Shown here piece by piece: positions 1 through 33,622 of a DNA stretch of 64,000 nucleotides. The stretch lies in the NCBI GenBank assembly GCA_000989305.1, contig LBTB01000002.1, forward strand, positions 40,411-104,410, written 5' to 3'. The notes under the pieces were generated by a model, which was not told the origin of the DNA, made no database searches, and worked only from the letters and a program-made list of their open reading frames with translations. This stretch comes from Candidatus Shapirobacteria bacterium GW2011_GWF2_37_20 (lineage in GTDB: Bacteria; Patescibacteriota; Microgenomatia; UBA12405). The translations under genes and the position numbers were made by a program. The first letter of the stretch is position 1. Each line of letters starts with the position of its first letter.

Positions 1-216
1 CCTTCTCTTCGCGAAGTCTTAAACTCTTCGGCTCTGTATATTAATCCGGAAAAATCCAGCACTTTAATTTCAGCCTTTCAAAAAATGATCGATCAGAAGT
101 TTCGCCAAAAACTTATTGAAAAAAGTAAATTTCAAGCAAATAAATTCACCTGGGAAAACTCAGCTAAAAATTTAATTTTACTTTTTCACCAAAAATTTGG
201 GGCTAAAAATGTATAA
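1..216 (+). CDS. glycosyltransferase family 1 (GT4-like), C-terminal fragment; 5' end lies outside the window
   Basis: Frame-1 translation runs from the window edge to TAA at 214-216 (...NPEKSSTLISAFQKMIDQKFRQKLIEKSKFQANKFTWENSAKNLILLFHQKFG). The tail is typical of a GT4 C-terminus and heads a run of glycosyltransferase genes. Confidence 0.4.
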   Translation, partial: PSLREVLNSSALYINPEKSSTLISAFQKMIDQKFRQKLIEKSKFQANKFTWENSAKNLILLFHQKFGAKNV

Positions 217-9747: not shown

Positions 9748-9750
9748 TAC

Positions 9751-11706
9751 ATGTTAAAATTATCCATGGATATCCCCTCTACCCTAGTAAAAAACAACCC
9801 CGTTCCGGTTAAAAAGAACCTACAGTTAAAACCAAATAAAAAACTTATTACCATACTATCGGTAATATTTGGAGTACTCATCTTAATAGCCATCTTTCTT
9901 TTTTTCTTTCTCTATCTTCCCGGAAAAGCCATTGTCAAAGAAATCGATACCACCAAAACCATTGCTCTTTCCTTACAACAATCAATCTCTGATAAGGATC
10001 TGGCTCAAAGTAAGATCAATTTATCCGCCATTAAACAACAACTAGCTGTAGTTGAAAGTAAATTCAAAAAACTTTCGTACTTAAAAATTGTTCCTTTCGC
10101 CAATAAATATTACCAAGACGGACAAAGTTTATTAAAGATTGGAAATGATGCTTTAGAAACCGGCGACATAGTTATTCAGGCTATTGAACCCTACCAGGAT
10201 TTCCTTGGTTTAAAAGGTGCCGCCACCAGTAGTGCCAAAACCACCGAAGACAGAATTTCATTTTTAACCGAATCAGTTGAAGGTTTATTGCCCCACTTCG
10301 ATTCCATCGATACCAAAGTAACAGAAATCGAAACTTTAATTAACCAAATTGATATTACCCGCTATCCTGAAAACTTTAGGGGTATAGCTCTCAGAACTGA
10401 TTTTAACCAGGCCAAGGAAGCCATCGGTCAGGCAAAAAAATTTATTAGTGACGGCAAACCAATTCTTGCCCAAACCTCATGGTTATTGGGCAAAGACAAA
10501 GCACGAAATTATTTAATTATATTTCAAAACGACGGCGAGCTTAGACCCAGTGGTGGTTTTTGGACTGCCTACACCACCATTAAAGTTGATAAAGGAAAAA
10601 TTATTCCCGGATCATCCAACAATATTTACGATTTAGATGACAAAATTTCCAGTACTACTCCCGCCCCACGACTCATCAAGTCCTACCATATTAACGTTCC
10701 CTATTTAAATCTCCGGGATAGCAATCTTTCTCCGGATTTTCCGACAGATGCTCAAATTTTTCTTGACGGTTACTACAAAGCCATGGGCAAAAGAACTCTC
10801 TTTGACGCCGTTATCGCCCTCGACACTAACGTTTTAGTTGATATCGTCAAGGTATTAGGAAAACTCGATACCACCGTGGGCACTTTTACCACCGACCCCG
10901 ATCCTCGCTGTAATGGTTGTCCAAAAATTATCTACGACCTTGAATGGATTGCTGGCCGACCCAGAAATTATATTGAATTAGACCGTAAAGGCTTTCTTGG
11001 GCCTCTGATGCACGCTCTTTTAGCCAACGCTATGGGTTCTGAAAAAACCAAAATGGCTCCTTTGGCTCAAGCCTTTTTCAACAATATTAACCAAAAGCAT
11101 ATTATGTTCTATTTTTCTGATCCGGAAGTTCAAAAAGCTGCTCAATCAGCAAACATCGCCGGACATATTGTTCAAACAGACAGCAACACTGATTATTTCC
11201 ATCTCAACGACGCTAATTTTGCCAGCGCTAAAAGTAATATCTTTATTACTCAAAAGATTAAACACGAAATTACCACTAAAGACGGTAATGTCGAACATAA
11301 GGTTTCTATCACTTACACCAACCCTGCTAAAGCCTCAAACTGTAACCTGGAAAAAGGTGATTTATGTTTAAACGCACCCACTTACAGAGATCTGTTTAGG
11401 TTCTACGTTCCTGTTGGTAGCCAACTAATTAAAATGACCGGTTCCGAGGTCGAACCAGTAGTTTATGAAGAACTAGGCAAACAGGTCTTTGAGGGTTTCT
11501 ACGGCAACAAATACCCCCTCTATGCCATGTCCAACACCAAAATCAGTATTCAATATCTCTCACCGGTAAAAGCCAGTAAAAATTACGTTCTCTATCTCCA
11601 AAAACAACCTGGTACCAAAGCAGTTGAATATGAAGTCGAGGTCAACGGAAGGGAAGTGGAAACATTTTCCTGGATTGCTGACAAGAGCCTCCGGCTCTCT
11701 CTCTGA
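9751..11706 (+). CDS. large membrane-anchored extracytoplasmic protein of unknown function (possibly DUF4012-like)
   Basis: 651 aa with one N-terminal TM (ILSVIFGVLILIAIFLFFFLYL) and a long hydrophilic domain. Lies directly after the glycan cluster. The family call rests on architecture and context only. Confidence 0.35.
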   Translation: MLKLSMDIPSTLVKNNPVPVKKNLQLKPNKKLITILSVIFGVLILIAIFLFFFLYLPGKAIVKEIDTTKTIALSLQQSISDKDLAQSKINLSAIKQQLAVVESKFKKLSYLKIVPFANKYYQDGQSLLKIGNDALETGDIVIQAIEPYQDFLGLKGAATSSAKTTEDRISFLTESVEGLLPHFDSIDTKVTEIETLINQIDITRYPENFRGIALRTDFNQAKEAIGQAKKFISDGKPILAQTSWLLGKDKARNYLIIFQNDGELRPSGGFWTAYTTIKVDKGKIIPGSSNNIYDLDDKISSTTPAPRLIKSYHINVPYLNLRDSNLSPDFPTDAQIFLDGYYKAMGKRTLFDAVIALDTNVLVDIVKVLGKLDTTVGTFTTDPDPRCNGCPKIIYDLEWIAGRPRNYIELDRKGFLGPLMHALLANAMGSEKTKMAPLAQAFFNNINQKHIMFYFSDPEVQKAAQSANIAGHIVQTDSNTDYFHLNDANFASAKSNIFITQKIKHEITTKDGNVEHKVSITYTNPAKASNCNLEKGDLCLNAPTYRDLFRFYVPVGSQLIKMTGSEVEPVVYEELGKQVFEGFYGNKYPLYAMSNTKISIQYLSPVKASKNYVLYLQKQPGTKAVEYEVEVNGREVETFSWIADKSLRLSL

Positions 11707-16851: not shown

Positions 16852-18105
16852 ATGATTCGCAAATTAAAAAATCTTTTATGGCACCTCCCACGAGGAATTT
16901 TTTGGAATCTATACTTTTCTTTCCCTAGTCGAAAATTAACCCTTATTGGCGTTACTGGTACGGACGGAAAAACAACCTGTTGTACTCTAATTCAAAAGCT
17001 TCTGGAAAATAGCGGTATCAAATGTGGCATTATCAGTACCATTAGTTCTCCCGGCCTACACACCACCAGTCCTGATCCAAAAATTCTTCAAAAAATATTT
17101 GACGATTACCAAAAACAAGGCTATACCCATGTCGTTTGCGAAGTTACCTCACACGCCCTGGACCAACATCGCTTCTGGGGTTGTCATTTTAAAAGTAGTT
17201 TAATTACCAATATTTCCCATGAGCATCTTGATTATCACAAAAATATAGACGCCTACATTGCCGCAAAGGCAAAATTATTTTCTCAATCCGATCTGGCCAT
17301 TCTCAATCGCGACGATCCTCATTATTTGGCCTTAAAAAAGCTGGTTAAAGTTCCCGTGACTACCTACGGCATTAAAAATAAATCTGATTTTACGGCCAAA
17401 AACATAAAAATTACTTCAGACTCTCTAAGTTTTAATATCAACCAACAAAAATTTGTCAGCGACAGTAACTATGAATATCAAATTTACAACATTCTTGCCT
17501 GTTACTCCATCTTTATTAAACTTAAACTCGACCCAAAAATATTTTCCGACACCATTACCAATTTCCCCGAAACTAAAGGACGACGCGAAATTATTGAAAA
17601 CAATCTTCACCTAAAAACCATCGTTGACTTTGCCCACACTCCAAACGCACTTTTTGTTACTCTCTCATCACTACGTCGGACCACTCAAGGAAAACTAATA
17701 GTTATCTTTGGTGCCACCGGTGGCCGGGATAAAACAAAAAGACCAATAATGGGAAAAAATGTCTCCCAATTGGCTGATGTTGCCATAATTACCGCCGACG
17801 ATACTAGAAATGAAAAAATCGAAGATATTAATCAGCAAATAATTTCCGGAATAGATCCTGGCAAATCTATTTTAGGCAACCCTTTAAATCCAGTTATTAC
17901 CAAAGCCCGCCGCTTTCATTATTTCAATGTTCCCAATCGACAAGATGCCTTTAACTTGGCCGTCAAAATCGCCAAAGCCGGTGATACCATCGTTGCTTGC
18001 GGAAAAGGTCACGAGACCTCTATTCTACACGAGAGCACTGAATATCCCTGGTCAGAAGCCGAAGCCTTTAGAACTGCTTTTCGCCTAAAAAACCAAAATG
18101 TATAA
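16852..18105 (+). CDS. murE: UDP-N-acetylmuramoyl-tripeptide synthetase MurE (lacks N-terminal domain)
   Basis: P-loop LIGVTGTDGKTT (MurE-type GxTGTxGKTT). 417 aa with the central and C-terminal domains only. dcw position after ftsI. Confidence 0.7.
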   Translation: MIRKLKNLLWHLPRGIFWNLYFSFPSRKLTLIGVTGTDGKTTCCTLIQKLLENSGIKCGIISTISSPGLHTTSPDPKILQKIFDDYQKQGYTHVVCEVTSHALDQHRFWGCHFKSSLITNISHEHLDYHKNIDAYIAAKAKLFSQSDLAILNRDDPHYLALKKLVKVPVTTYGIKNKSDFTAKNIKITSDSLSFNINQQKFVSDSNYEYQIYNILACYSIFIKLKLDPKIFSDTITNFPETKGRREIIENNLHLKTIVDFAHTPNALFVTLSSLRRTTQGKLIVIFGATGGRDKTKRPIMGKNVSQLADVAIITADDTRNEKIEDINQQIISGIDPGKSILGNPLNPVITKARRFHYFNVPNRQDAFNLAVKIAKAGDTIVACGKGHETSILHESTEYPWSEAEAFRTAFRLKNQNV

Positions 18106-18697
18106 TCTAAAAAATAATTTGTCAATTGAAGAAAACTATTTGCAGGGTTATCTTCCCCAAAGAAATTCCCAAGACTCCTTTTATCAAGACGAAAACCATT
18201 CTTCTCGTTGTGATCTAAGCTTATTCCAATTATCTTCAGAGAACAGACGTATCATTAAAAAGACTGAAAATTTCACTTTTACCAAACTTCTTCTTTCAGA
18301 ATTTAACTACACCCCTCTTATTCAAAAACAAATTGTAGACTGGGTCAAAGAATTAGGATGGGATTTTCCAACCTCATCAATAAAAACCGTATTTACCAAT
18401 CATATTTTTAACTATCTATATATATGGTATGACCAAAACAAAGAAATTTGTGCCTACTCAATTTGTTATATTAATGAAAATTTTTCCCACATAGCCTATG
18501 TTTTTTATAATCCCAAATATACCCACAACGATTTGCCCATCCGACTTTCCCTGCAAGTAGTTACCGATAGTAACGACATGAAACTTAAATACTGTTATTT
18601 AGGCCGCTTTAACCCCAGTAATAAGCTTGGTTTTTATAAAAGAAACTTTCCGGGCTTCCAATATTTTACTCAGGGGACTTGGTTATCATATAATTAA
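18098..18697 (+). CDS. aminoacyl-tRNA--protein transferase-like protein (Ate/Bpt family C-terminal domain, GNAT/Fem-like fold)
   Basis: C-terminal YCYLGRFNPSNKLGFYKRNFPGFQYFTQGTW matches the Bpt/Ate1 signature YLGYWI..S.KM.YK..F.P.E.L..G.W. It lacks the N-terminal Cys-rich ATE_N motif. Confidence 0.45.
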   Translation: MYNLKNNLSIEENYLQGYLPQRNSQDSFYQDENHSSRCDLSLFQLSSENRRIIKKTENFTFTKLLLSEFNYTPLIQKQIVDWVKELGWDFPTSSIKTVFTNHIFNYLYIWYDQNKEICAYSICYINENFSHIAYVFYNPKYTHNDLPIRLSLQVVTDSNDMKLKYCYLGRFNPSNKLGFYKRNFPGFQYFTQGTWLSYN

Positions 18698-18702
18698 CAA
18701 AT

Positions 18703-19992
18703 ATGCATATTTACCTTGTTGGAATTGCCGGTTCAATGACCGCCCCCTTGGCCATTGCCCTTCAAAAACAAGGCCACAAGGTCACCGGATCAGACCAAGA
18801 AAAAACCTTTCCTCCCTACCGGCAACAGCTAAAAAAAGCCAATATTTTAATTAATCAGACACCAATAAATTCTGAGATTGATTTGGCCATTATCGGCTCA
18901 TCATATTTATTCTTTAAAAAAACCAGAGAAGATTTCGAAGCCGTCAAAGCCCAAAAGATCCCCTACATTTCCGCCACTGAGTATCTTTCTAAAAACCTAA
19001 TCAAAGAAAATTCCATATTAGTTGCCGGCTCATATGGTAAAACAACCATTAGTGCCGCCCTTGCCCATCTTCTAAGCCAAGCCAAACTTAATCCTTCCTA
19101 CATGTTTGGTGGCCAAAGTCTTAATCGACTTGACTCCCTACACTTCTCCGACTCAACCTGGTCCGTCCTTGAAGCCGACGAATCAATCAACGGCCTCGAC
19201 ACCAAAGCAAAATTTCTTTATTATCCCGTTAAATATCTAATATTGACTAGTGCCCTCTGGGAACATAAAGAAAGCTATCGAAGCGATGCAAAAAACTTTG
19301 CCGCATTTTTAGAATTAGTAAAAAAAATACCCTCCGACGGTCTTCTGATATATAACCAGAACGATACTTCCATTTTGCCACTTCTTCCCCATGTCAAATG
19401 CCAAAAAATTGCTTACCAAAAAACTTCATTAAGCACTTCCTTAATCGGCAAATACAACCAAGAAAATCTTGGTGCCGTTGAAACCTTAGCTCAAAATATA
19501 AATATCTCTCCCCAAATTATTAAAAAATCCCTTTCCTCTTTTAAGGGAGTTAAAAGGCGTTTAGAACTTTGCGCTCAAGCAGGGGGGATAATATTTATCG
19601 ATGATTTTGCCCAATCAGCCAATAGAATCAAGGCGGCCCTTGAAGTCATCAAAAATACTTATCCCAAATCTCATCTTAAAGTTTTTTATGAAGCTCACGC
19701 CTCTTTTATGCAATATCGTTCTGGTGTAAAACAGCTCTGCTCTGTTTTTAATCTAGCTGATGAAACCGTCATTTTCCAACTCAAATTTAATTCAAAAATC
19801 AGCACCAAAGACAGAATTGTGGCCAAAGATTTCTTAGAAATTATTCCCCAAAGCCTTTACCTGCCCCTGGCAAGTGATGTCATAAAACATTACCGCAAAA
19901 CCCTTAAAAAGGGTGATATTTTAATTCATTTTAGTTCTGGTGGAGTTGAAGGGCAAAAAACTTTTCGAAAAATTATTAATTTATACAAATAA
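18703..19992 (+). CDS. murC: Mur ligase, MurC/Mpl-like (UDP-N-acetylmuramate--L-alanine ligase)
   Basis: N-terminal HIYLVGIAGSMTAPLAIALQKQGHKVTGSD (MurC Rossmann/GSD motif) and P-loop VAGSYGKTT. Confidence 0.6.
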   Translation: MHIYLVGIAGSMTAPLAIALQKQGHKVTGSDQEKTFPPYRQQLKKANILINQTPINSEIDLAIIGSSYLFFKKTREDFEAVKAQKIPYISATEYLSKNLIKENSILVAGSYGKTTISAALAHLLSQAKLNPSYMFGGQSLNRLDSLHFSDSTWSVLEADESINGLDTKAKFLYYPVKYLILTSALWEHKESYRSDAKNFAAFLELVKKIPSDGLLIYNQNDTSILPLLPHVKCQKIAYQKTSLSTSLIGKYNQENLGAVETLAQNINISPQIIKKSLSSFKGVKRRLELCAQAGGIIFIDDFAQSANRIKAALEVIKNTYPKSHLKVFYEAHASFMQYRSGVKQLCSVFNLADETVIFQLKFNSKISTKDRIVAKDFLEIIPQSLYLPLASDVIKHYRKTLKKGDILIHFSSGGVEGQKTFRKIINLYK

Positions 19993-21327: not shown

Positions 21328-22358
21328 TTCACTTATATCTTGGCCTTCTATTATTCTCCTTTCTGGCTACCAGCATTTTAGTCGTACCCTACATTAATCT
21401 TCTTTACCGACTTAAATTTCAGCGTCAAAAACAGTCCACCCTTGATTTTCAAAATCAAAAGACCCCCATCTTTGACAAATTCCACTCATTAAAAAGTGGT
21501 ACACCCGTTGGCGGTGGACTTCTTATCATTGTCACTGTTGTCATTCTTTTTGCTTTCCTGTTTCCCATGTTAAAAATGTCCCGTCTCTTTATTTCCAGTA
21601 ACTACCACCTAATCAATGAGTTGATCGTTATCTTTTTTACCTTCATAAGTTTCGGTCTTCTTGGTCTATATGACGACATTCTAAAGTTTTTTAACTTTAA
21701 AAAGTCCGGATTTTTTGGCCTAAGAATGAAATACAAATTAATTCTTCAGTTACTCTTGGCCACCGTCATTTCCAGCCTAATCTATTTTCAGCTGGGAATC
21801 AATTTTATCTATCTTCCTTTTGTAGGTGCTGTCAGTCTTGGATTATTCTTTATTCCAATTTCCACCACAATCATTGTTGCTTTTGCCAACTTTTTTAATA
21901 TCACCGATGGTTTAGACGGCTTGGCCTGTGGCACTTTGATGATTTCTCTTTTCGCTTTCTGGATTCTAGCTGGCACCTCCCTTGATACCCCCATCTCCCT
22001 CTTTTTATCCCTCTGGATCGGTTCTCTTATTGCCTTTCTTTACTTTAATGTCTACCCGGCTCGTATCTGGCTGGGAGACGTTGGTTCATTATCTTTTGGG
22101 GCCACCTTTGCTGTCATCGCTCTGCTTCTAGGAAAGGTTGTTCCTCTTTTTATTGTCGGGGCTCCTTTTATTATCGAAGGTATGACCAGTGCCATTCAAA
22201 TCTTTAGTAAAATCTATCTTCACAAAAAAATATTTCCCGCCGCTCCAATCCACCTCACTCTTCAAAAAAATGGCTGGGAAGAACCCAAAATTGTTTTTAG
22301 AGCTTGGCTAGCTGCTATTATTTTAGCTATTTTTGGACTATGGCTGGGACTAAATTAA
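21324..22358 (+). CDS. mraY: phospho-N-acetylmuramoyl-pentapeptide transferase MraY
   Basis: Polytopic membrane protein with NFFNITDGLDGLA (MraY/WecA DDxxD-type signature). Confidence 0.85.
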   Translation: MIHLYLGLLLFSFLATSILVVPYINLLYRLKFQRQKQSTLDFQNQKTPIFDKFHSLKSGTPVGGGLLIIVTVVILFAFLFPMLKMSRLFISSNYHLINELIVIFFTFISFGLLGLYDDILKFFNFKKSGFFGLRMKYKLILQLLLATVISSLIYFQLGINFIYLPFVGAVSLGLFFIPISTTIIVAFANFFNITDGLDGLACGTLMISLFAFWILAGTSLDTPISLFLSLWIGSLIAFLYFNVYPARIWLGDVGSLSFGATFAVIALLLGKVVPLFIVGAPFIIEGMTSAIQIFSKIYLHKKIFPAAPIHLTLQKNGWEEPKIVFRAWLAAIILAIFGLWLGLN

Positions 22359-22879
22359 GTGAATTACGTCAGGAAATTTTAAAATATATTGGCATCCCGT
22401 ACCATACCAATATCCCTAAGGTAATTTCTACTGAAAATGTTTTACTTGGTAAGGGCAATGCCAGGGAGATTGCCCTAAAAACAATTGAATTAGCCAATAA
22501 AAATAACCTAAAAATTCTAAATTTAAGTCCCCAACAAATCTATAATTTTCAAAAAAAGAATAAAATTGGCATTGATTGCTCCGGTCTGGCCTGTCATCTT
22601 CTTAATTTTTACTTTAATACCAAACTAAATGTTCGGCGCACCTCCGCCGACATGCTTAGCTCCGCCCCCTTATCAAAACAAATTGACATTTCCGACACCC
22701 AAACCGCCGACCTAATCCGACAAAAAGATGGTCACCACCTTCTCTTTGTTATCGAAAAAATTGGTGACAAAGTTGTCTATGTTGATTCTTCACGAAAGGG
22801 CAGGGGAGTACGCTATGGCGAATTCGACATCACTGACAAAAACTTCAAACACAACGGAGTTTTCAGATTAAATAGATAG
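22340..22879 (+). CDS. NlpC/P60-family (papain-like) cell-wall hydrolase, putative
   Basis: GIDCSGLACHLLNFYFNTKLNVRRTSADM (catalytic Cys context like DCSGLV...PRTS) and GHHLLFVIEKIGDKVVYVDSSRKG (His context like HVGIYIG..IHAS). The longer track ORF starts at 22304 inside mraY. Confidence 0.5.
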   Translation: MAGTKLSELRQEILKYIGIPYHTNIPKVISTENVLLGKGNAREIALKTIELANKNNLKILNLSPQQIYNFQKKNKIGIDCSGLACHLLNFYFNTKLNVRRTSADMLSSAPLSKQIDISDTQTADLIRQKDGHHLLFVIEKIGDKVVYVDSSRKGRGVRYGEFDITDKNFKHNGVFRLNR

Positions 22880-22881
22880 GT

Positions 22882-23190
22882 TTATTTCTTTTCCCAGCGA
22901 TCCTTGTCTCTTTTTTTGTATTTATCCATTATTCTGTCAAAATGTTTGTCCAAATCAATATTAAGTGAATTAGCCAAGCATGCCAGAGTGTAGATGATGT
23001 CTGCCATTTCATCACCCAATTCCTGGGTTTCTTCAGATGGCTTTTTCTTTTTTGAACCAAAAAGATGATTTAACTCTCTTGCCGTCTCACCAACTTCTTC
23101 AACTAATCGAGCTAAAATCTCTAAAGGTTTAAAATAACCAACCTTGTACTGAGAAATCCATTCATCAACTTCTTTTTGAATCCTTTTCAT
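22882..23190 (-). CDS. MazG-like nucleoside triphosphate pyrophosphohydrolase (small all-alpha NTP-PPase)
   Basis: LVEEVGETARELNH...ELGDEMADIIYTLACLAN is the MazG/HisE-type EExxE...D motif pair. Start ATG overlaps the stop of the upstream LysW-like ORF by 1 nt. Confidence 0.7.
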   Translation of the reverse strand: MKRIQKEVDEWISQYKVGYFKPLEILARLVEEVGETARELNHLFGSKKKKPSEETQELGDEMADIIYTLACLANSLNIDLDKHFDRIMDKYKKRDKDRWEKK

Positions 23191-23354
23191 TATTTTTCCT
23201 CAATCAACTCCCGGTACCGAAGAGGGGTGGTTGAGATAATTTCCACTTCAGTTCCACATTCCTGACATTCTAAAATATCTCCAAGCATTGGGCTTTCACC
23301 TTTAATTTCCGCCTGGCAATCAGGGCAAAGAACTTTATTATTAGTATCTGGCAT
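23190..23354 (-). CDS. LysW-like zinc-ribbon protein (amino-group carrier protein family), 54 aa; not in the ORF track
   Basis: Translation MPDTNNKVLCPDCQAEIKGESPMLGDILECQECGTEVEIISTTPLRYRELIEEK. It has the CxxC-16-CxxC spacing and the ELGE[LI]VxCxxCGxElEV[VI]...PL.L...EE pattern of LysW (Thermus LysW: CPECGAELRLENPELGELVVCEDCGAELEVVGLDPLRLEPAPEE...). The C-terminus is -EEK rather than the acidic -E of canonical LysW. TAATG coupling to the mazG-like gene. Confidence 0.55.
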   Translation of the reverse strand: MPDTNNKVLCPDCQAEIKGESPMLGDILECQECGTEVEIISTTPLRYRELIEEK

Positions 23355-23388
23355 ATAATTTAGCTAAAATATAACTAATCACTATTAT

Positions 23389-24186
23389 ATGACACCACTA
23401 AGTAAAATCGATAATCTATATTTTAAACGTGAAGATTTAAATCCCACCGGCTCCGCCAAAGACAGAGCTCTACCCTTCCAGATTCAAAACTTACTAAATA
23501 ACGGCTTTAAATCCGCCGTTATTTCTTCAACCGGCAATGCCGCCATTTCCGCCACCTATTATTGTCAAAAAGAAAATATTCCCCTAACCATTTTTGTTTC
23601 TCCAAAAATCAATATCAACAAATTATCCCTTATAAAAGGCAATATCATCAAGTCTCTCAAACCAATCAGCGATGCCATCAAGTTTTCTAAAGCCAACCAT
23701 GCCTATCTTTTACGACAATCAACTGACCCCTCAGCTCAAGTAGGCTATGCTGAAATAGCCAAAGAAATATTAATTCAATTACCACAAATTACCAGCCTTT
23801 TTATTCCCGTTGGTAGTGGTACTACCTTACTGGGGATTGCCAAAGTCTTACCCAACAACGTTAAAATCTTTGCCGCCCAACCAGCCAGTAATCCAACTAT
23901 CTCTAGTGTTTTTGATCAGGATTACACACCAGAAACTCAAACCATTACCGATGCTCTTAGCGTAAAATATTTACCTCTTAAAACCGAAGTGATAAATGCA
24001 ATTAAATCACGCTATTCTTTTGGTATTGTTGTCAAAAATACTGACGCTATCAAATATTTAGATTTTGTTAAACAATTTGAAACCTCACCAGAGTCAGCCC
24101 TGACTCTAGCCGCCTACCATCAAATAAAAAATAAACCCGAAGTGGGGGATTATCCTGTTATTCTTTTAACCGGCACAAAACGCTAA
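23389..24186 (+). CDS. PLP-dependent enzyme, fold type II (tryptophan-synthase-beta superfamily; threonine-synthase/cysteine-synthase-like), unusually short (265 aa)
   Basis: FKREDLNPTGSAKDRA is the fold-II PLP-lysine motif (xNPTGSFKDR). The phosphate-binding Gly loop is PVGSGTT. Confidence 0.6.
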   Translation: MTPLSKIDNLYFKREDLNPTGSAKDRALPFQIQNLLNNGFKSAVISSTGNAAISATYYCQKENIPLTIFVSPKININKLSLIKGNIIKSLKPISDAIKFSKANHAYLLRQSTDPSAQVGYAEIAKEILIQLPQITSLFIPVGSGTTLLGIAKVLPNNVKIFAAQPASNPTISSVFDQDYTPETQTITDALSVKYLPLKTEVINAIKSRYSFGIVVKNTDAIKYLDFVKQFETSPESALTLAAYHQIKNKPEVGDYPVILLTGTKR

Positions 24187-25277
24187 TGGGCAATCTAGAG
24201 ACTTTATTAAAAAATTCCGGCTACAACTTTTTCTTTTTAGTTGTCGATAAATTCTTAGACATTAGTTTACCCCAACTTCCAAATTTTCAATCTCTGTCTC
24301 AAAAAAATCTGAAAATCAAAAATAGTGGTTTTCTTTTATCGCAGGGAAACATTCAAAATACAATTAAATCTGCCCCAAATCCGGCCATCATTCCTTTTAA
24401 GCCCTCAGCAAAAATTGAAAAAATATGTCAAAAAAATTCCTGGACCTTAGTTGCCAATCCCGCCAAAATTAATCGACTTTTAGAGAACAAAATCAAATTT
24501 TTTGAAACCTGTAACATAAATGGATTACCCATAGTTCCTGGAATTGTTGCCGAATTTAATCAAAATTCTTTTCAAAAAGCCCAAGAAAAATTTGGCAACT
24601 CTTTAGTTGTTCAAACCCATTTTGGTTGGGCAGGAAATAGTACCCATTACTTTGATAATTACGAAACAGCAAAAGCCGTTATCCCTAAAAACACTCTTGC
24701 CAAATTCTCTCCCTATTTAAAAGGATATTCCCTTCTTAATAATTGCTGTCTCACCCGCCATGGACTACTTCAAAGCCCTCCCGCCCTTCAGTACACCGGA
24801 CTACCCAACCTAACCCAAAACCCCTTTGCCACCGTTGGCCGTCAGTGGCCATCATTTGCTCCACTCGAAATCCAGGAACAGATTTACCAAATTACTGAAA
24901 ATTTTTCAAACAAAATACTTAAGCCCCTGAATTATCGTGGTTTTTTTGGTTTAGATTTTATTGTCTCTGACAATAAGGTCTACCTTCTTGAATGCAACCC
25001 GAGACTTACCGCTTCCTTCGCCTTTTATACTCAAATCGAAGTAAACAACAACCTCACCCCACTCTTTTATTACCACTTAGCTGAATTTATTAATCAAGAT
25101 TATTCAATTGATTTAAAGTTAGAACAACAACGCTTTCACCATCAAAATATTATCGGCTCTGAGATAACTCAAAGAAACAGCGACGGCCTCATCGTTAAAA
25201 AATATCACGATTTTAAGGTCTTCTCTACAAAAACAGATCCTGTCATTATTAACCAGGAAATTTTGTCAAAACTTTAG
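24186..25277 (+). CDS. ATP-grasp domain protein (carboxylate--amine ligase family), subfamily unassigned
   Basis: KIKFFETCNINGLPIVPG (central domain), LVVQTHFGWAGNS (ATP-binding strand-like) and DFIVSDNKVYLLECNPRLTASF (Mg-binding E/N motif of ATP-grasp). TAATG coupling with the upstream PLP-enzyme gene, and 2 nt from ftsW. Confidence 0.5.
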   Translation: MGNLETLLKNSGYNFFFLVVDKFLDISLPQLPNFQSLSQKNLKIKNSGFLLSQGNIQNTIKSAPNPAIIPFKPSAKIEKICQKNSWTLVANPAKINRLLENKIKFFETCNINGLPIVPGIVAEFNQNSFQKAQEKFGNSLVVQTHFGWAGNSTHYFDNYETAKAVIPKNTLAKFSPYLKGYSLLNNCCLTRHGLLQSPPALQYTGLPNLTQNPFATVGRQWPSFAPLEIQEQIYQITENFSNKILKPLNYRGFFGLDFIVSDNKVYLLECNPRLTASFAFYTQIEVNNNLTPLFYYHLAEFINQDYSIDLKLEQQRFHHQNIIGSEITQRNSDGLIVKKYHDFKVFSTKTDPVIINQEILSKL

Positions 25278-25279
25278 AA

Positions 25280-26410
25280 ATGAAAATTTCCCCCCTGCTT
25301 ACTTACTCCACCCTTCTCTCTTTTATCGGTTTGTTATTTATTTCTTCCTCCTCCCTTTTTGAAGCCGAAAAAACTATTGGCGACCCATATTTTTTCCTTA
25401 AAAAACAAATGCTTTGGCTTGTTGTTGGTTTAATTAGCCTCTTTATTACCTCTAAAATTAAACTAGATACTTTTGTCAACAATTCTTTTCGCCTCTATTT
25501 ATTCTCTGCTATTTTATTACTCCTGGTATTAATTCCTGGTATCGGTGCACAAGTTCTTGGCGCCAGACGTCAAATTGATTTAGGCTTTTTTAATTTTCAG
25601 CCCTCTGAACTATTTAAGTTTGCCTCAGTAATTTTCTTTTCCTTTCTTTTTTCTTTAAAGGAAAAAAGAAATTTAAAAAACTTAACCCTATATCTCGGAC
25701 CACCTTTAATTTTAATCATTCTTGAGCCAAACCTCAGTACTACTGTCATGATTGCCGCTATTGTCATTTCTATCTACTATCTTTCCGGTGCTGAAATTAT
25801 AAGCCTTTTCTCGGCCGGTTTTGTCATCACCCTTCTAAGTTTCTTATTAATTCTAGTCTCACCCTATCGTCTGGCCCGCGTTAAAACTCTTCTCAACCAG
25901 CAAAGTAATCAAGACCTGAGTTACCACAGCGAACAAATAGTACTTTCCTTAGCCTCTGGCGGGTGGTCAGGTAAAGGCTTTGCCAATTCCGACCATAAAT
26001 ATCAATTTATCCCTAAAATAAGCACCGATTCGATCCTTGCTATTGTTGGTGAAGAAACTGGCTTTGTCGGCTTAACTTTAATTAGCTATCTATTTTTACT
26101 TTTAATTTCCCGATTAATTCATATCTCTCAAGTGGCCACCGATACTTATGAAAAACTTCTCGTCAGTGGTATTGCCTGTTGGATAGCCTATCAAGGTTTA
26201 ATTAATTTTGCCGCCATTGTTGCCTTAATCCCGCTGACCGGAATTCCTTTTCCCTTCATTGCCTATGGAGGCTCCTCCCTAATCACCCTATTTTGCGCCT
26301 TGGGACTAGCTATAAATATAGAAAATAAATATTCTAAATTGCTATACTCAAAGGATGACCGAAACCAGAAAGATAATCATCACCGGCACTCATATCACCC
26401 CCGCCATTGA
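25280..26410 (+). CDS. ftsW: SEDS-family peptidoglycan glycosyltransferase FtsW
   Basis: 10-TM protein with GIPFPFIAYGGSSLITL (SEDS signature). dcw position before murG. Confidence 0.75.
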   Translation: MKISPLLTYSTLLSFIGLLFISSSSLFEAEKTIGDPYFFLKKQMLWLVVGLISLFITSKIKLDTFVNNSFRLYLFSAILLLLVLIPGIGAQVLGARRQIDLGFFNFQPSELFKFASVIFFSFLFSLKEKRNLKNLTLYLGPPLILIILEPNLSTTVMIAAIVISIYYLSGAEIISLFSAGFVITLLSFLLILVSPYRLARVKTLLNQQSNQDLSYHSEQIVLSLASGGWSGKGFANSDHKYQFIPKISTDSILAIVGEETGFVGLTLISYLFLLLISRLIHISQVATDTYEKLLVSGIACWIAYQGLINFAAIVALIPLTGIPFPFIAYGGSSLITLFCALGLAINIENKYSKLLYSKDDRNQKDNHHRHSYHPRH

Positions 26411-29855: not shown

Positions 29856-32627
29856 ATGCCGTATTTTAAAGAACTTCCCAATACCCCAGACTTTCCTCAG
29901 CTGGAAAAAGATATTCTCACCTGGTGGCAGGATAACAATCTTGTCCAAAAATATCTTCACAAAAATGATGATTCAAAAGAAATCTTTTCTTTTATTGACG
30001 GACCTATCACCGCCAACGCCCCCATGGGAGTTCACCATGCTCGGGGAAGGACTTTAAAAGACGTCTTTCAAAGATTTAAAAACGCTCAAGGCTTTTCCCA
30101 AAGGTTTCAAAATGGTTTTGATTGTCAGGGACTTTGGGTCGAAGTTGAAGTCGAAAAAGAAAATGGTTTTAATTCTAAAAAAGATATTCAAAATTTTGGT
30201 TTAAAAAACTTTACTAAAGCTTGCCTGGCTCGGGTTGACAAATTCAGTAAAATTCAAACCGAACAATCAATTCGTCTAGGAATGTTTATGGATTGGGAAA
30301 ACTCATATTACACCAATTCCCAGACCAATAATCTCTATATCTGGCACTTTCTAAAAACTGTTTGGCAAAAAGGTTGGCTTGTTCAAAGAAAAAGTGCCAC
30401 TACTTGGTGTCCCCGCTGTGAAACCGGCCTCTCTCAACATGAGCAAGCCGATGGATATCAAATGGATACCGACACTTCTGTTTTTCTAAAATTCAAATTA
30501 AGCGACAGGAAAAATGAATATTTTCTTGCTTGGACTACAACGCCCTGGACTCTCGCCGCCAATGTTTTATTGGCTATTAATACTAAATTTGAATATGTCA
30601 AAGCCAAATATGAAAATCAAATTTTGTATTTAGCCAAAGAATCTGCCGACAGACTGGGCATAACTGATTACAAGAACATAGACCCTAAAACTTTACTAAA
30701 TCTTAAATACGAATCATTGTTTGATATTCCCGCCCAAAAGGGGATTAAGCACTATATTACTCAATGGGACCAGGTCAATCCTTCCGAAGGTACTGGAGTT
30801 GTCCATATCGCCCCCGGCTGTGGTCAGGAAGATTTTGAATTAGGTAAAAAACTAAATTCCGATATGTTATCGCCCTTAACCGAAAATGGTCACTTTATTG
30901 AAAACTATGGTTTTCTAACCGGAAAATATGCCCACGGAGTCAATGATGAAGTTATTAAATACTTAGAATCCAATAACTCTTTATTTAAAACTGAAGCCGT
31001 CACTCATCGCTACCCCCATTGCTGGCGCTGTAAAACAAAGTGTCTCTTCCGTTTGGAAAATTCCTGGTATATTAATTCCGATGAAATTCGCCCTCTCCTA
31101 AAGGAAGCTGCAAAAAAAGTTGACTGGCATCCAAAATATACCGCTCGCCGGATGCAAAATTGGCTTGATTCTATGGAAGATTGGATGATTAGTCGCAAAC
31201 GTTTCTACGGCCTCGCCCTTCCTTTTTATCAATGTAGTTGTGGTGAATTAACTGTCATTGGTTCTAAAGAAGAACTAAAGGAAAAAGCTATTAATCCTAA
31301 ATTAATCGACAAACTACCTTCATTTCATCGACCCTGGATTGATGAAATAGAAATAAAATGCCCAAAATGCGGCAAAAATGTCAAACGTATTCCTGACGTC
31401 GGCGACGTTTGGCTTGATGCTGGAGTTGTTCCTTTTTCAACCCTAAAATACCTCGATGATAAAACCTATTGGCAAAAGTGGTTCCCCGCCCAAATGGTTC
31501 TGGAAATGACCGAACAAATACGTTTATGGTTTTATTCCATGCTTTACTTTAGTGTTACTTTTGAGGGTACCGCGCCTTACAAAAGTGTTGTTACTTACTC
31601 CGAAGTTCGTGATCAAAAAGGAGAGCGCATGAGCAAGACCAAGAAAAATGGCATTCCCTTTGACGAAGCTGTTGATAAAATGGGGGCCGACCCCATGCGT
31701 TGGCTTTATTGCCAACAAAAAGCTCACGCCAGTGTTAACTTTGGCTACAATATCGCCGACCAGGTAAAGCGTGATTTCCTTTTAATTCTTTGGAATTCCT
31801 ATCGTTTTTTCACCCAACACGCCAATCTTGAAAACTGGCAACCTCCAAAAAACTCAAGCCCAAGCGAGACCAAACATCCTATGGATAAATGGCTACTGTC
31901 ACGTCTGCACCACACCATCGAGCTCTCAACAAAAAACCTTGAAAAATATAACACCTCAAAAGTCACTGAAAGTATCGAAAAATTTGTCAACGATCTTTCC
32001 ACTTGGTACATTCGACGTTCCCGTGACCGAAATGATAATTTCGAACTATTGTCTCTTGTCTTTGACAACTTATTTAAACTAATGGCTCCCGTTACCCCTT
32101 TCTTAAGTGAAACTTTATATCAAAATCTAAATTCTCAAAAATCAGTACATTTGGAAAAATGGCCACTAAATGACAACTCCTTCATTGATGAAAAATTAGA
32201 AAAAGACATGGACCTCGTTAGAACACTTTGTCAACTAGCCCACGCCCAAAGACAAGTTGCCAATATTAAAATTCGTCAGCCATTATCAAATCTTGATCTT
32301 CACTGCCCCACAGAATTGAGCCCGGAACTTTTAGCTATTATTGGCGAAGAAGTAAACATCAAAACAGTTAAGATTACAAAAATCACTGACACTGTTAAAG
32401 TAATTTTGGAAACAACAATTACTCCCGAACTTGCCGCTGAAGGTGAATATCGAGATCTGATCAGAAACATCCAGGTTCTCAGAAAAAATCAGGGCTTACT
32501 CGTCCAAGATAGAATTAAAATACGCGCCCCCTCATGGCCCAAAGAATTCGAAAAACAAATTTTGGAAAAAACCCTTGCCGATTCTTTGGAAATAGGGGAC
32601 ATTCTCAGTCTTGAAAAAAGCTCATGA
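29856..32627 (+). CDS. ileS: isoleucine--tRNA ligase (class I, reduced 923-aa form)
   Basis: HIGH-like PMGVHHARG and KMSKS-like ERMSKTKKNG. IleRS-like blocks FGLKNFTKACLARVDKFSKIQTEQSIRLGMFMDWENSYYT and TWCPRCETGLSQHE. ValRS cannot be fully excluded without alignment. Confidence 0.65.
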   Translation: MPYFKELPNTPDFPQLEKDILTWWQDNNLVQKYLHKNDDSKEIFSFIDGPITANAPMGVHHARGRTLKDVFQRFKNAQGFSQRFQNGFDCQGLWVEVEVEKENGFNSKKDIQNFGLKNFTKACLARVDKFSKIQTEQSIRLGMFMDWENSYYTNSQTNNLYIWHFLKTVWQKGWLVQRKSATTWCPRCETGLSQHEQADGYQMDTDTSVFLKFKLSDRKNEYFLAWTTTPWTLAANVLLAINTKFEYVKAKYENQILYLAKESADRLGITDYKNIDPKTLLNLKYESLFDIPAQKGIKHYITQWDQVNPSEGTGVVHIAPGCGQEDFELGKKLNSDMLSPLTENGHFIENYGFLTGKYAHGVNDEVIKYLESNNSLFKTEAVTHRYPHCWRCKTKCLFRLENSWYINSDEIRPLLKEAAKKVDWHPKYTARRMQNWLDSMEDWMISRKRFYGLALPFYQCSCGELTVIGSKEELKEKAINPKLIDKLPSFHRPWIDEIEIKCPKCGKNVKRIPDVGDVWLDAGVVPFSTLKYLDDKTYWQKWFPAQMVLEMTEQIRLWFYSMLYFSVTFEGTAPYKSVVTYSEVRDQKGERMSKTKKNGIPFDEAVDKMGADPMRWLYCQQKAHASVNFGYNIADQVKRDFLLILWNSYRFFTQHANLENWQPPKNSSPSETKHPMDKWLLSRLHHTIELSTKNLEKYNTSKVTESIEKFVNDLSTWYIRRSRDRNDNFELLSLVFDNLFKLMAPVTPFLSETLYQNLNSQKSVHLEKWPLNDNSFIDEKLEKDMDLVRTLCQLAHAQRQVANIKIRQPLSNLDLHCPTELSPELLAIIGEEVNIKTVKITKITDTVKVILETTITPELAAEGEYRDLIRNIQVLRKNQGLLVQDRIKIRAPSWPKEFEKQILEKTLADSLEIGDILSLEKSS

Positions 32628-33622
32628 GAAAAAAAATTCCTATCGCTCTTATCATCAGTCTAATAGTCCTCTCCTCACTTAATTTGCTGATGATTAGTTC
32701 CTTAGCTCCGTCACTTTTTTGGAAACAATTATTAGCCTGGATTATCGGAATCGGCTTGTTTGTCTTCGGTATGCAGATTAACCCCAAACAAACTAAAGCT
32801 CAGGGGCCACTCCTCCTAATCATTTCTTGCATAATTCTATTACTACCCATACTGGCCGGAAATTTCACCCGTGGCTCCCGTCGTTGGCTCTACATCGGCC
32901 CAATGTCATTACAGCCAAGTGAAATTGTCAAAGGTCCTCTCATGCTTTTTTTATCAACTACCAGCCTTCCTCTTCTTCACCTTATCCCAGTGGGAATTAT
33001 CATGCTTCAGCCGGATTTAGGAAGTGCCATTACTGTCTTTATCCTGATTATTCCCATAATTCTTTATAGTAAAAAATTATTCAAGCTTAGTCTCATTGCT
33101 GGAGCTATCTTTCTTCTTATCTCTCCCTTAAGTTATAAGTATATTCTCAAAGATTATCAGCGTCAGAGAATTGAACACTTTTTAAACCCTGCCTCCGACC
33201 CGCTAGGTCAGGGATATAACTTAATTCAGTCTCAAATTGCCATTGGCTCCGGCGGTCTCTTTGGTAAAGGTTACCGTAAAGGCACCCAGGGACAATTACT
33301 CTTCTTGCCCGAAAAACATTCCGATTTTATTTTTGCTTCTACTACTGAAGAATTAGGTCTCTTTGCTGTTCTACTTATTATTACTTCCTATTTTTTAATC
33401 ATAAAAACCCTCCTTGTCAAAGCCTTTCAAACAACCAACAACTTACCTCTTTTTCTTTTTACTCTCGGCATTGCCATTGAAATTTGGGTCCAAGCCTTTA
33501 TCAATATCGGTATGAATTTAGGTCTACTGCCGGTTACCGGAATTCCTCTGCCTTTCATGTCAGTCGGCGGTTCTTCTATTATGGCCCTCCTCTTTTCTCT
33601 TGGTGTTATTTCCTCCGCCTAA
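32624..33622 (+). CDS. rodA: SEDS-family protein (RodA/FtsW paralogue)
   Basis: TGIPLPFMSVGGSSIMALLFSLGV (SEDS signature) in a polytopic membrane protein. Second SEDS gene in the window. Confidence 0.65.
   Translation: MRKKIPIALIISLIVLSSLNLLMISSLAPSLFWKQLLAWIIGIGLFVFGMQINPKQTKAQGPLLLIISCIILLLPILAGNFTRGSRRWLYIGPMSLQPSEIVKGPLMLFLSTTSLPLLHLIPVGIIMLQPDLGSAITVFILIIPIILYSKKLFKLSLIAGAIFLLISPLSYKYILKDYQRQRIEHFLNPASDPLGQGYNLIQSQIAIGSGGLFGKGYRKGTQGQLLFLPEKHSDFIFASTTEELGLFAVLLIITSYFLIIKTLLVKAFQTTNNLPLFLFTLGIAIEIWVQAFINIGMNLGLLPVTGIPLPFMSVGGSSIMALLFSLGVISSA

Follow-up and report, generated by a model that had tools for sequence, protein, structure and literature searches.

A conserved LysW-like carrier, PLP enzyme, ATP-grasp and NlpC/P60-like gene set in the cell-wall cluster of Shapirobacteria and other CPR bacteria

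What occupies the interval between mraY and ftsW in the cell-wall (dcw) cluster of this genome from the ultra-small Shapirobacteria, and could it contribute to peptidoglycan precursor synthesis? The 64-kb stretch of DNA analyzed here (the window) carries its dcw genes in the order rsmH-ftsL-ftsI-murE-(ATE-like)-murC-murA-mraY ... ftsW-murG-ftsA-ftsZ, where the ftsL call is uncertain. The original prediction placed no Mur ligase between mraY and ftsW, and this holds for the window as a whole: MurD, MurF, Ddl and MurB were all absent among the scanned ORFs of at least 100 aa, which include every ORF of 160 aa or more. Inspection of the interval reveals five ORFs (Table 1) at the coordinates first proposed, except that the mechanically called TTG start of the first ORF at 22304 is replaced by a conserved ATG at 22340 (MAGTKL...). 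Both TAATG overlaps claimed earlier can be read directly from the sequence, one linking the stop codon of the LysW-like gene with the MazG start codon on the minus strand (23188-23192) and the other joining the stop of the PLP enzyme gene (PALP) to the ATP-grasp start (24184-24188). The 2-nt gap that follows is likewise present, with the ATP-grasp gene ending at 25277 and ftsW starting at 25280. Consensus-like promoter sites occur on both strands around the divergent intergenic region (23313-23341, plus; 23395-23368, minus); their count is no higher than in shuffled sequence, making them a weak feature.

Table 1 Features of the mraY-ftsW interval and of the murE-murC junction in the window
Feature	Position	Strand	Remarks
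ATE/Bpt-like aminoacyl-tRNA transferase homolog	18098..18697	+	PF04377, 28.4 bits (threshold 25); between murE and murC
NlpC/P60-like cysteine amidase, 179 aa	22340..22879	+	ATG start conserved; 19-nt overlap with mraY end
MazG-like NTP pyrophosphohydrolase, 102 aa	22882..23190	-	PF03819, 2e-14; translationally coupled to LysW-like gene
LysW-family zinc-ribbon carrier-like protein, 54 aa	23190..23354	-	PF21344; pI 4.2; tail ...LIEEK
Divergent intergenic region, AT-rich, 34 bp	23355..23388		Lies between the starts of the LysW-like and PALP genes; may hold divergent promoters
Minimal fold-type-II PLP enzyme (PALP), 265 aa	23389..24186	+	PF00291, 4.6e-37
ATP-grasp ligase, 363 aa	24186..25277	+	ATP-grasp_3, PF02655, 2e-8; translationally coupled to PALP; 2 nt from ftsW

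Profile comparisons indicate that the 54-aa protein is a true LysW homolog. It matches PF21344 at 1e-10 (41.5 bits, gathering threshold 27) and TIGR01206 at 43 bits, under the 53.2 cut-off of that model, and its profile matches solved LysW chains (3wwl, 3e-9; 5k2m_E, 6e-7). The small ORF is conserved in relatives, in line with the original prediction, and a median dN/dS of 0.16 points to purifying selection. Its terminal lysine is invariant in all complete sequences and constant across lineages whose ATP-grasp proteins share only 33-38% identity. The sequences end in EEK in 76/80 and 62/64 cases, the others having Q, T or V for the penultimate or antepenultimate E. The gene and its ATP-grasp neighbor are encoded on opposite strands at 52/52 and 32/33 loci, and the product is acidic where the partner enzymes have pI values of 9.1-9.7.

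The PALP protein carries a PLP-lysine motif (NPTGSAKDR), an SSTGN loop and a GSGTT phosphate loop. It belongs to a conserved family of 265-277 aa that scores far under every threonine synthase cut-off, ruling out a threonine synthase fragment. Among its structural neighbors are PLP-dependent racemases acting on aspartate or serine, along with serine-dehydratase-like proteins, and its best PDB sequence matches are serine racemases; Fn1220, SbnA and CysM are also close structural matches. Overall the protein is equidistant from racemase, dehydratase, beta-replacement and threonine synthase enzymes. The ATP-grasp protein is placed structurally with PurK, biotin carboxylase and L-amino-acid ligases (Lal), in line with the earlier view that it is not obviously RimK/LysX-like. 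A canonical Ddl is ruled out, given 18.9 bits against a Ddl model cut-off of 310 and a structure nearer to other ATP-grasp clades. The structural neighbors of the module ligase include PGM1, PylC, the peptide ligase 8ynd and BesA, a glutamate ligase; these enzymes activate the carboxylate of a small molecule and couple it to a peptide or lysine amine. Distant ATP-grasp paralogs also occur in unrelated contexts, as in locus L008.

No Pfam or NCBIfam family is matched directly by the first ORF. We assign it as a putative NlpC/P60 protein because it contains a DCSG...GHH motif, aligns by hhalign with bona fide NlpC/P60 domains fused to ATP-grasp homologs (probability 79%, E 1.6e-5) and has a 61%-identical homolog (P0466) that passes PF00877 (27.8 bits, threshold 23) and whose NCBI name agrees. 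The equivalent gene in locus L131 scores 60.5 bits against PF00877. A releasing or transfer enzyme is the role proposed for this amidase within the module. MazG is found only in the window and in loci L001-L003, L013 and L165, and is a lineage-specific passenger of the closest relatives. The five ORFs originally described as a single insert are thus real, but the conserved unit is a four-gene module of NlpC/P60-like, LysW-like (opposite strand), PALP and ATP-grasp genes, to which MazG does not belong.

Synteny of these genes extends across about 80 species and deep lineages, bearing out the earlier expectation. Module synteny holds in 51-52 of the 52 Shapirobacteria species loci with good flanks (GTDB species; PALP in 51, LysW in 52, NlpC in 51), and the module recurs in deeply divergent CPR (candidate-phyla-radiation) lineages, with PALP at 34, LysW at 33 and NlpC at 30 of 37 diverse metagenome loci. 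Presence of the four-gene unit at more than 100 independent loci is far beyond chance. The NlpC/P60 gene takes different places in different lineages (upstream, downstream or as a fusion), and it is absent near the module at some loci, such as L093 and L006. Fusion proteins of the PALP::ATP-grasp type were found, as were four representatives of ATP-grasp::NlpC/P60 fusions. The mraY-ftsW slot holds module genes in the lineage of the window, and a place among mur and fts genes is kept across divergence to about 35% identity.

The position of the module relative to murD addresses whether it substitutes for that gene. No murD was found in the window or in the ±10 kb flanks of any type-A relative. 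Other lineages show the arrangement NlpC-murD-LysW(-)-PALP-ATP-grasp at about 22 loci, and L131 reads mraY ... NlpC ... murD-LysW(-)-PALP ... ATP-grasp-ftsW with several unlabelled ORFs between. The murD products of the 22-locus arrangement score 174-258 bits against TIGR01087, with three of five passing the 212-bit cut-off, and for four proteins scanned at a threshold of 1e-35 murD was the sole family below it. Since a canonical murD is flanked by the module in other lineages, the two co-exist, and the module does not generally stand in for murD. Linkage of murD and module survives even where the remaining dcw cluster is dispersed (L125, L136, L150). At three loci (L120, L146, L147) the module instead lies between murC and murF, away from murD and its slot. 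The ATE-like gene, which lies outside the interval first described but may belong to the same rewired pathway, appears in all 79 murD-less loci showing both it and murC, and is fused to MurC in L009.

The original prediction offered a minimal carrier-tethered module feeding a peptidoglycan step, and this is the reading best supported by the fusions, the invariant tail and the structural homology to LysW. We accordingly favor, tentatively and at somewhat less than even confidence, a LysW-type carrier pathway within peptidoglycan precursor synthesis made up of the carrier, the ATP-grasp ligase, PALP and the NlpC/P60-like amidase. Our best reading is that such a new pathway would tailor an amino acid, possibly D-Glu, for stem-peptide position 2. 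The ATP-grasp enzyme would spend ATP to form an acyl-phosphate and then join an amino acid to the invariant C-terminal tail of the carrier; in the variant we favor, the gamma-carboxyl of L-Glu would be placed on the epsilon-amine of the terminal Lys, so that Glu keeps a free alpha-amino-acid end. PALP, translationally coupled to the ligase, would then act on the tethered residue, most plausibly racemizing it to D-Glu, and the amidase may release the product or pass it on for the MurD step. Also in its favor are the tight linkage of the four genes whatever their order, the tie to the MurD step and the structural neighbors of the ligase and of PALP. Known enzymes add to this. NlpC/P60 enzymes commonly hydrolyze gamma-D-Glu-Lys or gamma-D-Glu-DAP bonds; in butirosin synthesis BtrJ tethers Glu by its gamma-carboxyl to the carrier BtrI before the PLP enzyme BtrK acts; and glutamate racemase activity is known from a mammalian fold-II enzyme of serine/threonine dehydratase-like type. 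Several points weigh against this reading. The predicted tail ends in Lys, whereas to our knowledge all characterized LysW and amino-group carrier proteins (AmCPs) end in Glu; PALP favors none of the four chemistries listed above; and racemizing Glu poses no obvious chemical need for tethering. The loci lacking NlpC/P60 and those with murC-murF placement fit it poorly, and a dcw neighborhood can be historical, without functional meaning.

Other readings account for parts of these observations. One that we regard as possible but unlikely dispenses with the carrier: PALP would racemize a free amino acid to give D-Ser, D-Asp, D-Ala or D-Glu, the ATP-grasp enzyme would ligate the D-amino acid, either forming a dipeptide in the manner of Ddl or extending the stem peptide in that of Enterococcus faecium Aslfm/Racfm, the LysW-like protein would be accessory or regulatory, and NlpC/P60 would serve trimming or recycling. 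Cell-wall operons of a racemase and a ligase are known, the coupling and occasional fusion of PALP and ATP-grasp and the serine racemase matches fit this pairing, and ddl is absent from all clusters, even the otherwise complete L007 and L094. However, the ATP-grasp protein fails Ddl models and is nearer to the group of PurK, biotin carboxylase and L-amino-acid ligases; the presence at nearly all loci of a LysW homolog whose tail is invariant is left unexplained; and the module tracks murD rather than murF, whose ligase consumes what Ddl makes. The MurD replacement posed earlier, extended there to Ddl, is unsupported as a general statement. Confined to the lineage of the window, with the ATP-grasp enzyme ligating Glu (made D by PALP) to UDP-MurNAc-L-Ala, it would suit the type-A loci, with the module in or close to the murD slot, and the L007, L094 and L105 clusters, which hold every other mur gene. 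We nonetheless consider it the most improbable of the readings, as the loci that bracket murD include basal branches of a rough ATP-grasp tree, and the carrier and amidase are left without a role.

It is distinctly unlikely, in our estimation, that the module supplies stem position 3 with a diamino acid resembling DAP. Here the carrier would present a C-terminally encoded Lys, reloaded by the ATP-grasp enzyme and blocked at its alpha-amine; PALP would form aminoacrylate from Ser, O-phosphoserine or Cys and add it to the free epsilon-amine by beta-replacement; and NlpC/P60 would cut the Glu-Lys* bond to yield a diamino-dicarboxylic acid for MurE. Such a scheme preserves the protective-group logic of LysW pathways, the S-x-K-D-R motif and STGN loop are similar to those of beta-replacement enzymes and threonine synthases, and Fn1220, SbnA and CysM are among the close structural matches. 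DAP synthesis is generally missing in CPR bacteria, and MurE of the window has a DNPR-type motif (ADDTRNE) with its Arg retained, a residue that recognizes a distal carboxylate. Yet that motif is not conserved in the L007 lineage (EDTY), the linkage to murD goes unexplained, the ligase is not LysX/RimK-like, and we know of no such diamino acid in any peptidoglycan. A function outside precursor synthesis, either peptide recycling and turnover or an unrelated small-metabolite pathway hitch-hiking in the dcw operon, seems very unlikely. NlpC/P60 proteins are classically hydrolases of existing peptidoglycan peptides, including cytoplasmic YkfC-type recycling enzymes, and the paralogs in unrelated contexts could be read the same way; set against this are the long-conserved, coupled placement between essential mur and fts genes, 2 nt from ftsW, and the persistence of murD linkage where dcw is dispersed.

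Comparison with known systems places the module closest to the LysW/LysX pathways of alpha-aminoadipate lysine and arginine synthesis (Thermus, Sulfolobus, Thermococcus) and the AmCP clusters of Streptomyces. Both have a homologous acidic zinc-ribbon carrier (PF21344), always beside an ATP-grasp gene and with a conserved C-terminal tail, and the accompanying hydrolase is a conceptual analogue of LysK. The module differs in its tail (usually ...EEK, against ...EDWGE in LysW), in lacking LysZ, LysY, LysJ and LysK homologs, in using a fold-II PLP enzyme for modification and an NlpC/P60-type hydrolase, and in its dcw/murD context rather than one of amino-acid biosynthesis. Its ligase is not of the LysX/RimK type, and the analogy is therefore partial. 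Butirosin BtrI/BtrJ/BtrK/BtrG shares the logic of an ATP-grasp enzyme loading Glu onto a small carrier, a PLP enzyme then working on the tethered Glu, and removal of the gamma-glutamyl link by an enzyme of its own (BtrG). That carrier is a phosphopantetheinyl ACP with a thioester linkage, the PLP enzyme there is a decarboxylase with a different fold, and the proteins, which belong to secondary metabolism, are not homologous beyond the ATP-grasp superfamily. Aslfm and Racfm likewise pair a D-aspartate ligase of ATP-grasp type with a co-encoded aspartate racemase for peptidoglycan precursors, Aslfm joining a side-chain carboxyl to the Lys epsilon-amine; the racemase is PLP-independent, and carrier and NlpC/P60 are missing. 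Cysteine synthesis by CysO/CysM/Mec+ in Mycobacterium is also protein-bound, but uses a thiocarboxylate on a carrier of ubiquitin-like fold, adenylation by MoeZ (not an ATP-grasp enzyme) and a JAMM metalloprotease. Ddl and MurD share ATP-dependent amide-bond chemistry and the type of locus, although Mur ligases differ in fold from the module ATP-grasp protein.

The four-gene set inside the cell-wall cluster of Shapirobacteria and other CPR bacteria, physically linked to mraY, ftsW and murD, is previously undescribed. Since the module lies at or around murD, it probably makes or handles a cell-wall peptide building block in a new way.

Inspection of the window reveals the gene order rsmH-ftsL?-ftsI-murE-(ATE-like)-murC-murA-mraY-insert-ftsW-murG-ftsA-ftsZ-ileS-rodA. 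The original prediction had placed a five-gene insert at the murD/ddl slot, and all of its ORFs are present, as are the TAATG stop/start overlaps on both strands and the 2-nt gap between the ATP-grasp gene and ftsW. The first gene begins at the conserved ATG at 22340 rather than at the TTG at 22304. No module protein contains Mur ligase domains, in agreement with the predicted lack of a Mur ligase in the insert. MurD, MurF, Ddl and MurB were likewise absent from the scanned ORFs of at least 100 aa in the 64 kb, a scan that left out few ORFs, all below 160 aa. Scanning positions 22200-25400 for promoters and terminators gave a site count not above that of shuffled sequence. A Candidatus Shapirobacteria MAG (GW2011_GWE1_38_...) encodes proteins with 100% identity to the ATP-grasp and PLP enzymes of the window.

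Other features of the window lie outside the insert. An exopolysaccharide-type cluster is located upstream of recO, and a RodA-like second SEDS protein is encoded directly after ileS, downstream of ftsZ, in a ftsZ-ileS-RodA-like order kept across Shapirobacteria loci. GC skew is negative in every 2-kb bin of positions 1-64000 (-0.07 to -0.38), so that the (+) strand, which is mostly coding, is C-rich throughout.

Coordinates of features in the window and in compared loci (L-numbers)
Feature	Sequence	Position	Strand	Description
Exopolysaccharide-type cluster	window	197-11706		acetyltransferase, several GT2 and GT4 glycosyltransferases, Wzy-like protein, mannose-1-phosphate guanylyltransferase, polyprenyl glycosylphosphotransferase, 651-aa DUF4012 protein
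MurE	window	16852-18105	+	417 aa; MurE profiles align from about position 76-94
ATE_C/Bpt-like aminoacyl-tRNA-protein transferase homolog	window	18098-18697	+	199 aa; between murE and murC
MurC-like ligase	window	18703-19992	+	TIGR01082 195 bits (cut-off 335); Mpl model 147 bits
NlpC/P60-like gene	window	22340-22879	+	
MazG-like gene	window	22882-23190	-	
TAATG overlap	window	23188-23192	-	
LysW-like gene	window	23190-23354	-	54 aa
PALP gene	window	23389-24186	+	fold-type-II PLP enzyme, 265 aa
TAATG overlap	window	24184-24188	+	
ATP-grasp gene	window	24186-25277	+	363 aa
RodA-like protein	window	32624-33622	+	332 aa
LysW-like/murD 3' overlap	L006	8869-8885		
LysW-like/murD 3' overlap	L090	1606-1622		
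LysW-like/murD 3' overlap	L125	8837-8868		
LysW-like/murD 3' overlap	L136	8896-8945		
ATE-like::MurC fusion	L009	3331-5268		645 aa; ATE-like part N-terminal
Distant ATP-grasp paralog system	L008	2075-10930		includes P0330, 493 aa

GTDB species representatives were searched with an ATP-grasp profile, which returned 138 matching stretches. The best 80 loci were kept, and nearly all of these are from Shapirobacteria as judged by title or synteny. The species representatives of GTDB that contain the module number at least 138, and many deep CPR lineages have it as well. A profile search of the whole library returned 1,989 representatives, of which 253 fall below 1e-30. ORF and BLAST annotation indicates the order mraY-NlpC-LysW(-)-PALP-ATP-grasp-ftsW throughout the kept loci. 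Where loci are well flanked (n=52), LysW is present in all 52 and always on the opposite strand, PALP and NlpC are each present in 51, and MazG is present in none. The MazG-like gene is confined to the window, L001-L003, L013 and L165, which makes it a passenger of the closest relatives, and it was rejected as a module member. The predicted five-gene insert thus stands as five ORFs in the window, with MazG outside the conserved unit. Fusions also occur among the other genes, namely a PALP::ATP-grasp protein (P0395, 782 aa; P-numbers denote homologous proteins from the profile search) and four ATP-grasp::NlpC/P60 proteins (P0301, P0316, P0358 and P0387), each matching PF00877 at ~1e-17. Since the four genes remain joined through both rearrangement and fusion, a chance neighbourhood is excluded.

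Some bins are evidently mislabelled, since among GTDB records whose dcw locus is of the Shapirobacteria type many bear the title 'uncultured Gammaproteobacteria bacterium' (L011, L015, L018, L022, L025 and others) and one (L035) the title 'Candidatus Methanoperedens sp.'. BLAST labels suggest additional putative fusions, MurC::MurB (L113) and MurC::NlpC (L157). A distant ATP-grasp paralog in L008, P0330, is probably NCBIfam PRK06524-like and occurs without LysW or PALP in a system comprising 7TM_transglut, ATPgrasp_ST, MATCAP, an N-formylglutamate amidohydrolase, a Ddl-like protein and GNAT.

On sequence grounds, the small protein of 54 aa is a true zinc ribbon of the LysW family. It scores 41.5 bits against PF21344 (threshold 27), and the LysW-like profile matches the globular domain of solved LysW chains from Thermus (3wwl, 3e-9) and Thermococcus (5k2m_E, about 6e-7); against the TIGR01206 equivalog it reaches 43 bits, under the 53.2 cut-off. 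The protein is acidic, with a pI of 4.2 versus 9.1-9.7 for its neighbours. Median dN/dS values, which are approximate because dS is saturated, are 0.16 for the LysW-like gene, 0.21 for PALP, 0.24 for ATP-grasp and 0.25 for the NlpC-like gene. The small ORF lies antisense in an otherwise co-directional operon in 84 of 85 loci, and its dN/dS together with its LysW homology rules out an antisense artefact.

The canonical LysW tail reads ...EDWGE. LysW models cover the globular part only and leave the tail outside the alignment, and tails were compared in a first set of 80 sequences (L001-L089, 77 distinct) and a second set of 65 (L090-L173, 64 complete). The C-terminal residue is Lys in all complete sequences of both sets, and the tail takes the form ...EEK in 76 of the 80 and in 62 of the 64. 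The penultimate E is replaced by Q or T in four first-set tails, and the second set has one VEK and one VQK tail. An acidic tail of the EDWGE type ending in Glu was not found in either set, the invariant Lys standing in its place. ATP-grasp proteins of type-B loci, those with murD beside the module, are only 31-38% identical to the window protein, so that the carrier tail is conserved over deep divergence. The LysW-like and murD 3' ends of type B converge and overlap on opposite strands by 17-50 nt. Because the tail is kept equally in overlapping and non-overlapping loci, the overlap constraint does not explain it, and maintenance of the tail solely through overlap with murD was ruled out.

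The 265-aa protein matches PF00291 at 4.6e-37 with invariant NPTGSAKDR, SSTGN and GSGTT motifs, and its PALP domain has the marks of a fold-type-II PLP enzyme, of minimal size here, namely a Schiff-base lysine and a phosphate loop rich in glycine. In profile searches, serine racemase, dehydratases, threonine synthase and an Fn1220-type cysteine synthase all score between 1e-14 and 1e-12, which puts the protein at equal distance from racemases, dehydratases and cysteine synthases and favours no single chemistry; it falls under every NCBIfam cut-off. The original prediction had named two ordinary identities as alternatives to its own reading, a threonine synthase fragment for the PLP enzyme and a canonical Ddl for the ATP-grasp protein, and neither holds. 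The PLP enzyme fails the threonine synthase family cut-offs (PRK08329, 88 bits versus 358; TIGR00260, 33.8 versus 167) and is 265-277 aa long in all relatives. The ATP-grasp protein fails the Ddl family models and is not structurally closest to Ddl, and a RimK/LysX-family loading ligase was also rejected. Its sequence similarity to CPS, biotin carboxylase and PurK is confined to their ExNPR region; its AF2 model (363 aa) has a pLDDT of 90.4. The window protein encoded by the first gene has no Pfam match, so its predicted NlpC/P60 nature is remote. The assignment draws on a DCSG...GHH motif invariant among the NlpC-like proteins, on an hhalign probability of 79% (E 1.6e-5), and on a 61%-identical homolog (P0466) that passes PF00877, as does the L131 equivalent, and is named NlpC/P60 family protein by NCBI.

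Contexts of distant members and the 80-locus metagenome scan define two architectures. Type A, that of the window, follows the order murE-ATE-murC-(murB)-murA-(murF)-mraY-NlpC-LysW(-)-PALP-ATP-grasp-ftsW-murG and never has murD within ±10 kb. Type B, with about 22 loci, follows the order NlpC-murD-LysW(-)-PALP-ATP-grasp, with murD adjacent. A real MurD adjoins the module in L006, L090, L131, L125 and L136. Against TIGR01087 (cut-off 212), the type-B ligase scores 258, 243 and 229 bits in three loci, while two further loci give 188 and 174 bits. Four of these proteins were scanned at a threshold of 1e-35, and MurD is the sole family below it. In L131 the module genes are interspersed in a canonical mraY-murD-ftsW order, as mraY ... 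NlpC ... murD-LysW(-)-PALP ... ATP-grasp-ftsW with several unlabelled ORFs between. NlpC-murD-LysW-PALP-ATP-grasp remains united in L125, L136 and L150 even though the remaining dcw cluster lies elsewhere, and the module neighbours there are glycosyltransferases, a PAP2 phosphatase, prfB and ftsEX-pcsB. A third arrangement has the module between murC and murF (L120, L146, L147), and NlpC lies downstream of ATP-grasp in L145, L151 and L155. In a rough neighbour-joining tree of the ATP-grasp proteins, drawn without support values, murD-adjacent loci are scattered and include basal branches, which hints at an old link in which murD adjacency is widespread and possibly ancestral.

We tentatively favour, with rather less than even confidence, a carrier-based pathway that would serve stem-peptide synthesis at the MurD step. 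This reading draws on a LysW homolog with an invariant tail and an obligatory ATP-grasp partner, and on two further enzymes, a translationally coupled or fused PLP enzyme and an adjacent or fused NlpC/P60 amidase. It includes a D-Glu variant, which is doubtful when taken alone. The ATP-grasp enzyme would activate the gamma-carboxyl of L-Glu and attach it to the carrier at the terminal Lys epsilon-amine, the PLP enzyme would racemise the free alpha-amino-acid end of the carrier-tethered Glu, and the NlpC/P60 enzyme would free D-Glu or hand it to MurD. PylC and BesA are structural neighbours of the module ATP-grasp. Ligation to a Lys epsilon-amine has the polarity seen in PylC, Aslfm and BtrJ, and gamma-carboxyl activation is as in BesA. 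Fold-II racemases are among the PALP neighbours, and the NlpC/P60 family typically cleaves gamma-D-glutamyl amides.

Other readings were weighed against the carrier-based pathway. A racemase and ligase working together without a carrier, in the manner of Ddl/Alr or Aslfm/Racfm, are unlikely. The partner of the Aslfm-type D-aspartate ligase is a PLP-independent Asp racemase, whereas the module partner is a PLP enzyme. TS/CysK-like motifs, and the Arg retained in the window MurE where the DNPR-type motif reads ADDTRNE, lend some support to carrier-based formation of a DAP-like diamino acid via beta-replacement on the tethered Lys, which we nevertheless hold to be improbable. A recycling role, or an unrelated hitch-hiker, appears quite improbable. 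The predicted substitution of MurD by the PLP enzyme and ATP-grasp does not hold in general, because the module co-occurs with murD and brackets it in type B, and we give very little credence to direct replacement of MurD in type-A lineages, where murD is missing from the locus.

Type-A loci carry an ATE-like gene between murE and murC wherever murC is shown with enough upstream sequence (n=79), and in L009 the transferase is fused to MurC. The gene is absent beside murC in all five murC-showing loci of murD-containing lineages, a small sample, and the ATE-like profile matched no sequence in the PDB. Possible roles of the ATE-like protein are Fem-like addition of branches and participation in a MurD bypass. 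Given where MurE profiles begin to align, MurE of type A is missing its N-terminal UDP-binding domain (median length 425 aa in 59 relatives). MurC stays under its equivalog cut-off but does fairly well against the Mpl model. The ATE-like gene, the truncated MurE and the Mpl-like MurC scores allow, but do not show, a rewiring in which murD-less lineages, including the window genome, would have lost MurD and would assemble the early stem peptide off the nucleotide in a tRNA- and carrier-dependent manner, a scenario we consider a long shot. D-Glu may first be formed while tethered to the LysW-like carrier. The ATE/Bpt-like transferase, whose family acts on N-terminal Asp or Glu, may then make the L-Ala-D-Glu bond 'backwards' from Ala-tRNA, after which the Mpl-like MurC may join the peptide to UDP-MurNAc. 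Finally, the MurE without its UDP-binding domain and the NlpC/P60 enzyme may complete or release the product.

Comparison with known systems centers on AmCP (LysW/LysX), with which the module carrier shares the LysW zinc-ribbon globular domain. In AmCP the tail Glu gamma-carboxyl carries the substrate and the loading ligase belongs to the RimK/LysX ATP-grasp family, whereas the module carrier tail ends in Lys and the module ATP-grasp lies outside that family. LysZ/Y/J/K (kinase, reductase, aminotransferase, M20 hydrolase) were not found in the scanned window ORFs or among the scanned neighbours in L136, the one type-B locus covered. The partner enzymes of LysW pathways are not homologous to those of the module, whose context is peptidoglycan synthesis. 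As far as homology and gene context indicate, the module is a LysW-type carrier system with different tail chemistry in a new peptidoglycan context. That is to say, it is filed with LysW-type systems because its carrier is homologous to LysW, and set apart as new because the tail chemistry differs, the partner enzymes are non-homologous and the peptidoglycan context is new. Literature searches, of incomplete coverage, returned no account of a LysW-like/PALP/ATP-grasp/NlpC set.

Peptidoglycan synthesis in the cytoplasm proceeds through MurA-F, Ddl and racemases, steps that rank among the best conserved and studied bacterial pathways and are major antibiotic targets. To our knowledge, carrier-protein amino-acid chemistry has so far been confined to the biosynthesis of lysine, arginine and a small number of natural products. 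The module offers a defined, small set of soluble proteins for in vitro tests although the organisms themselves are beyond culture. If the carrier-based pathway is true, carrier-protein-mediated amino-acid chemistry would reach cell-wall synthesis through a carrier with a terminal lysine instead of glutamate, and CPR bacteria would have an unrecognised way to acquire one of the stem-peptide residues, perhaps D-Glu, or to put it in place. If off-nucleotide assembly were also true, the stem peptide would be made by a tRNA- and carrier-protein-dependent route.
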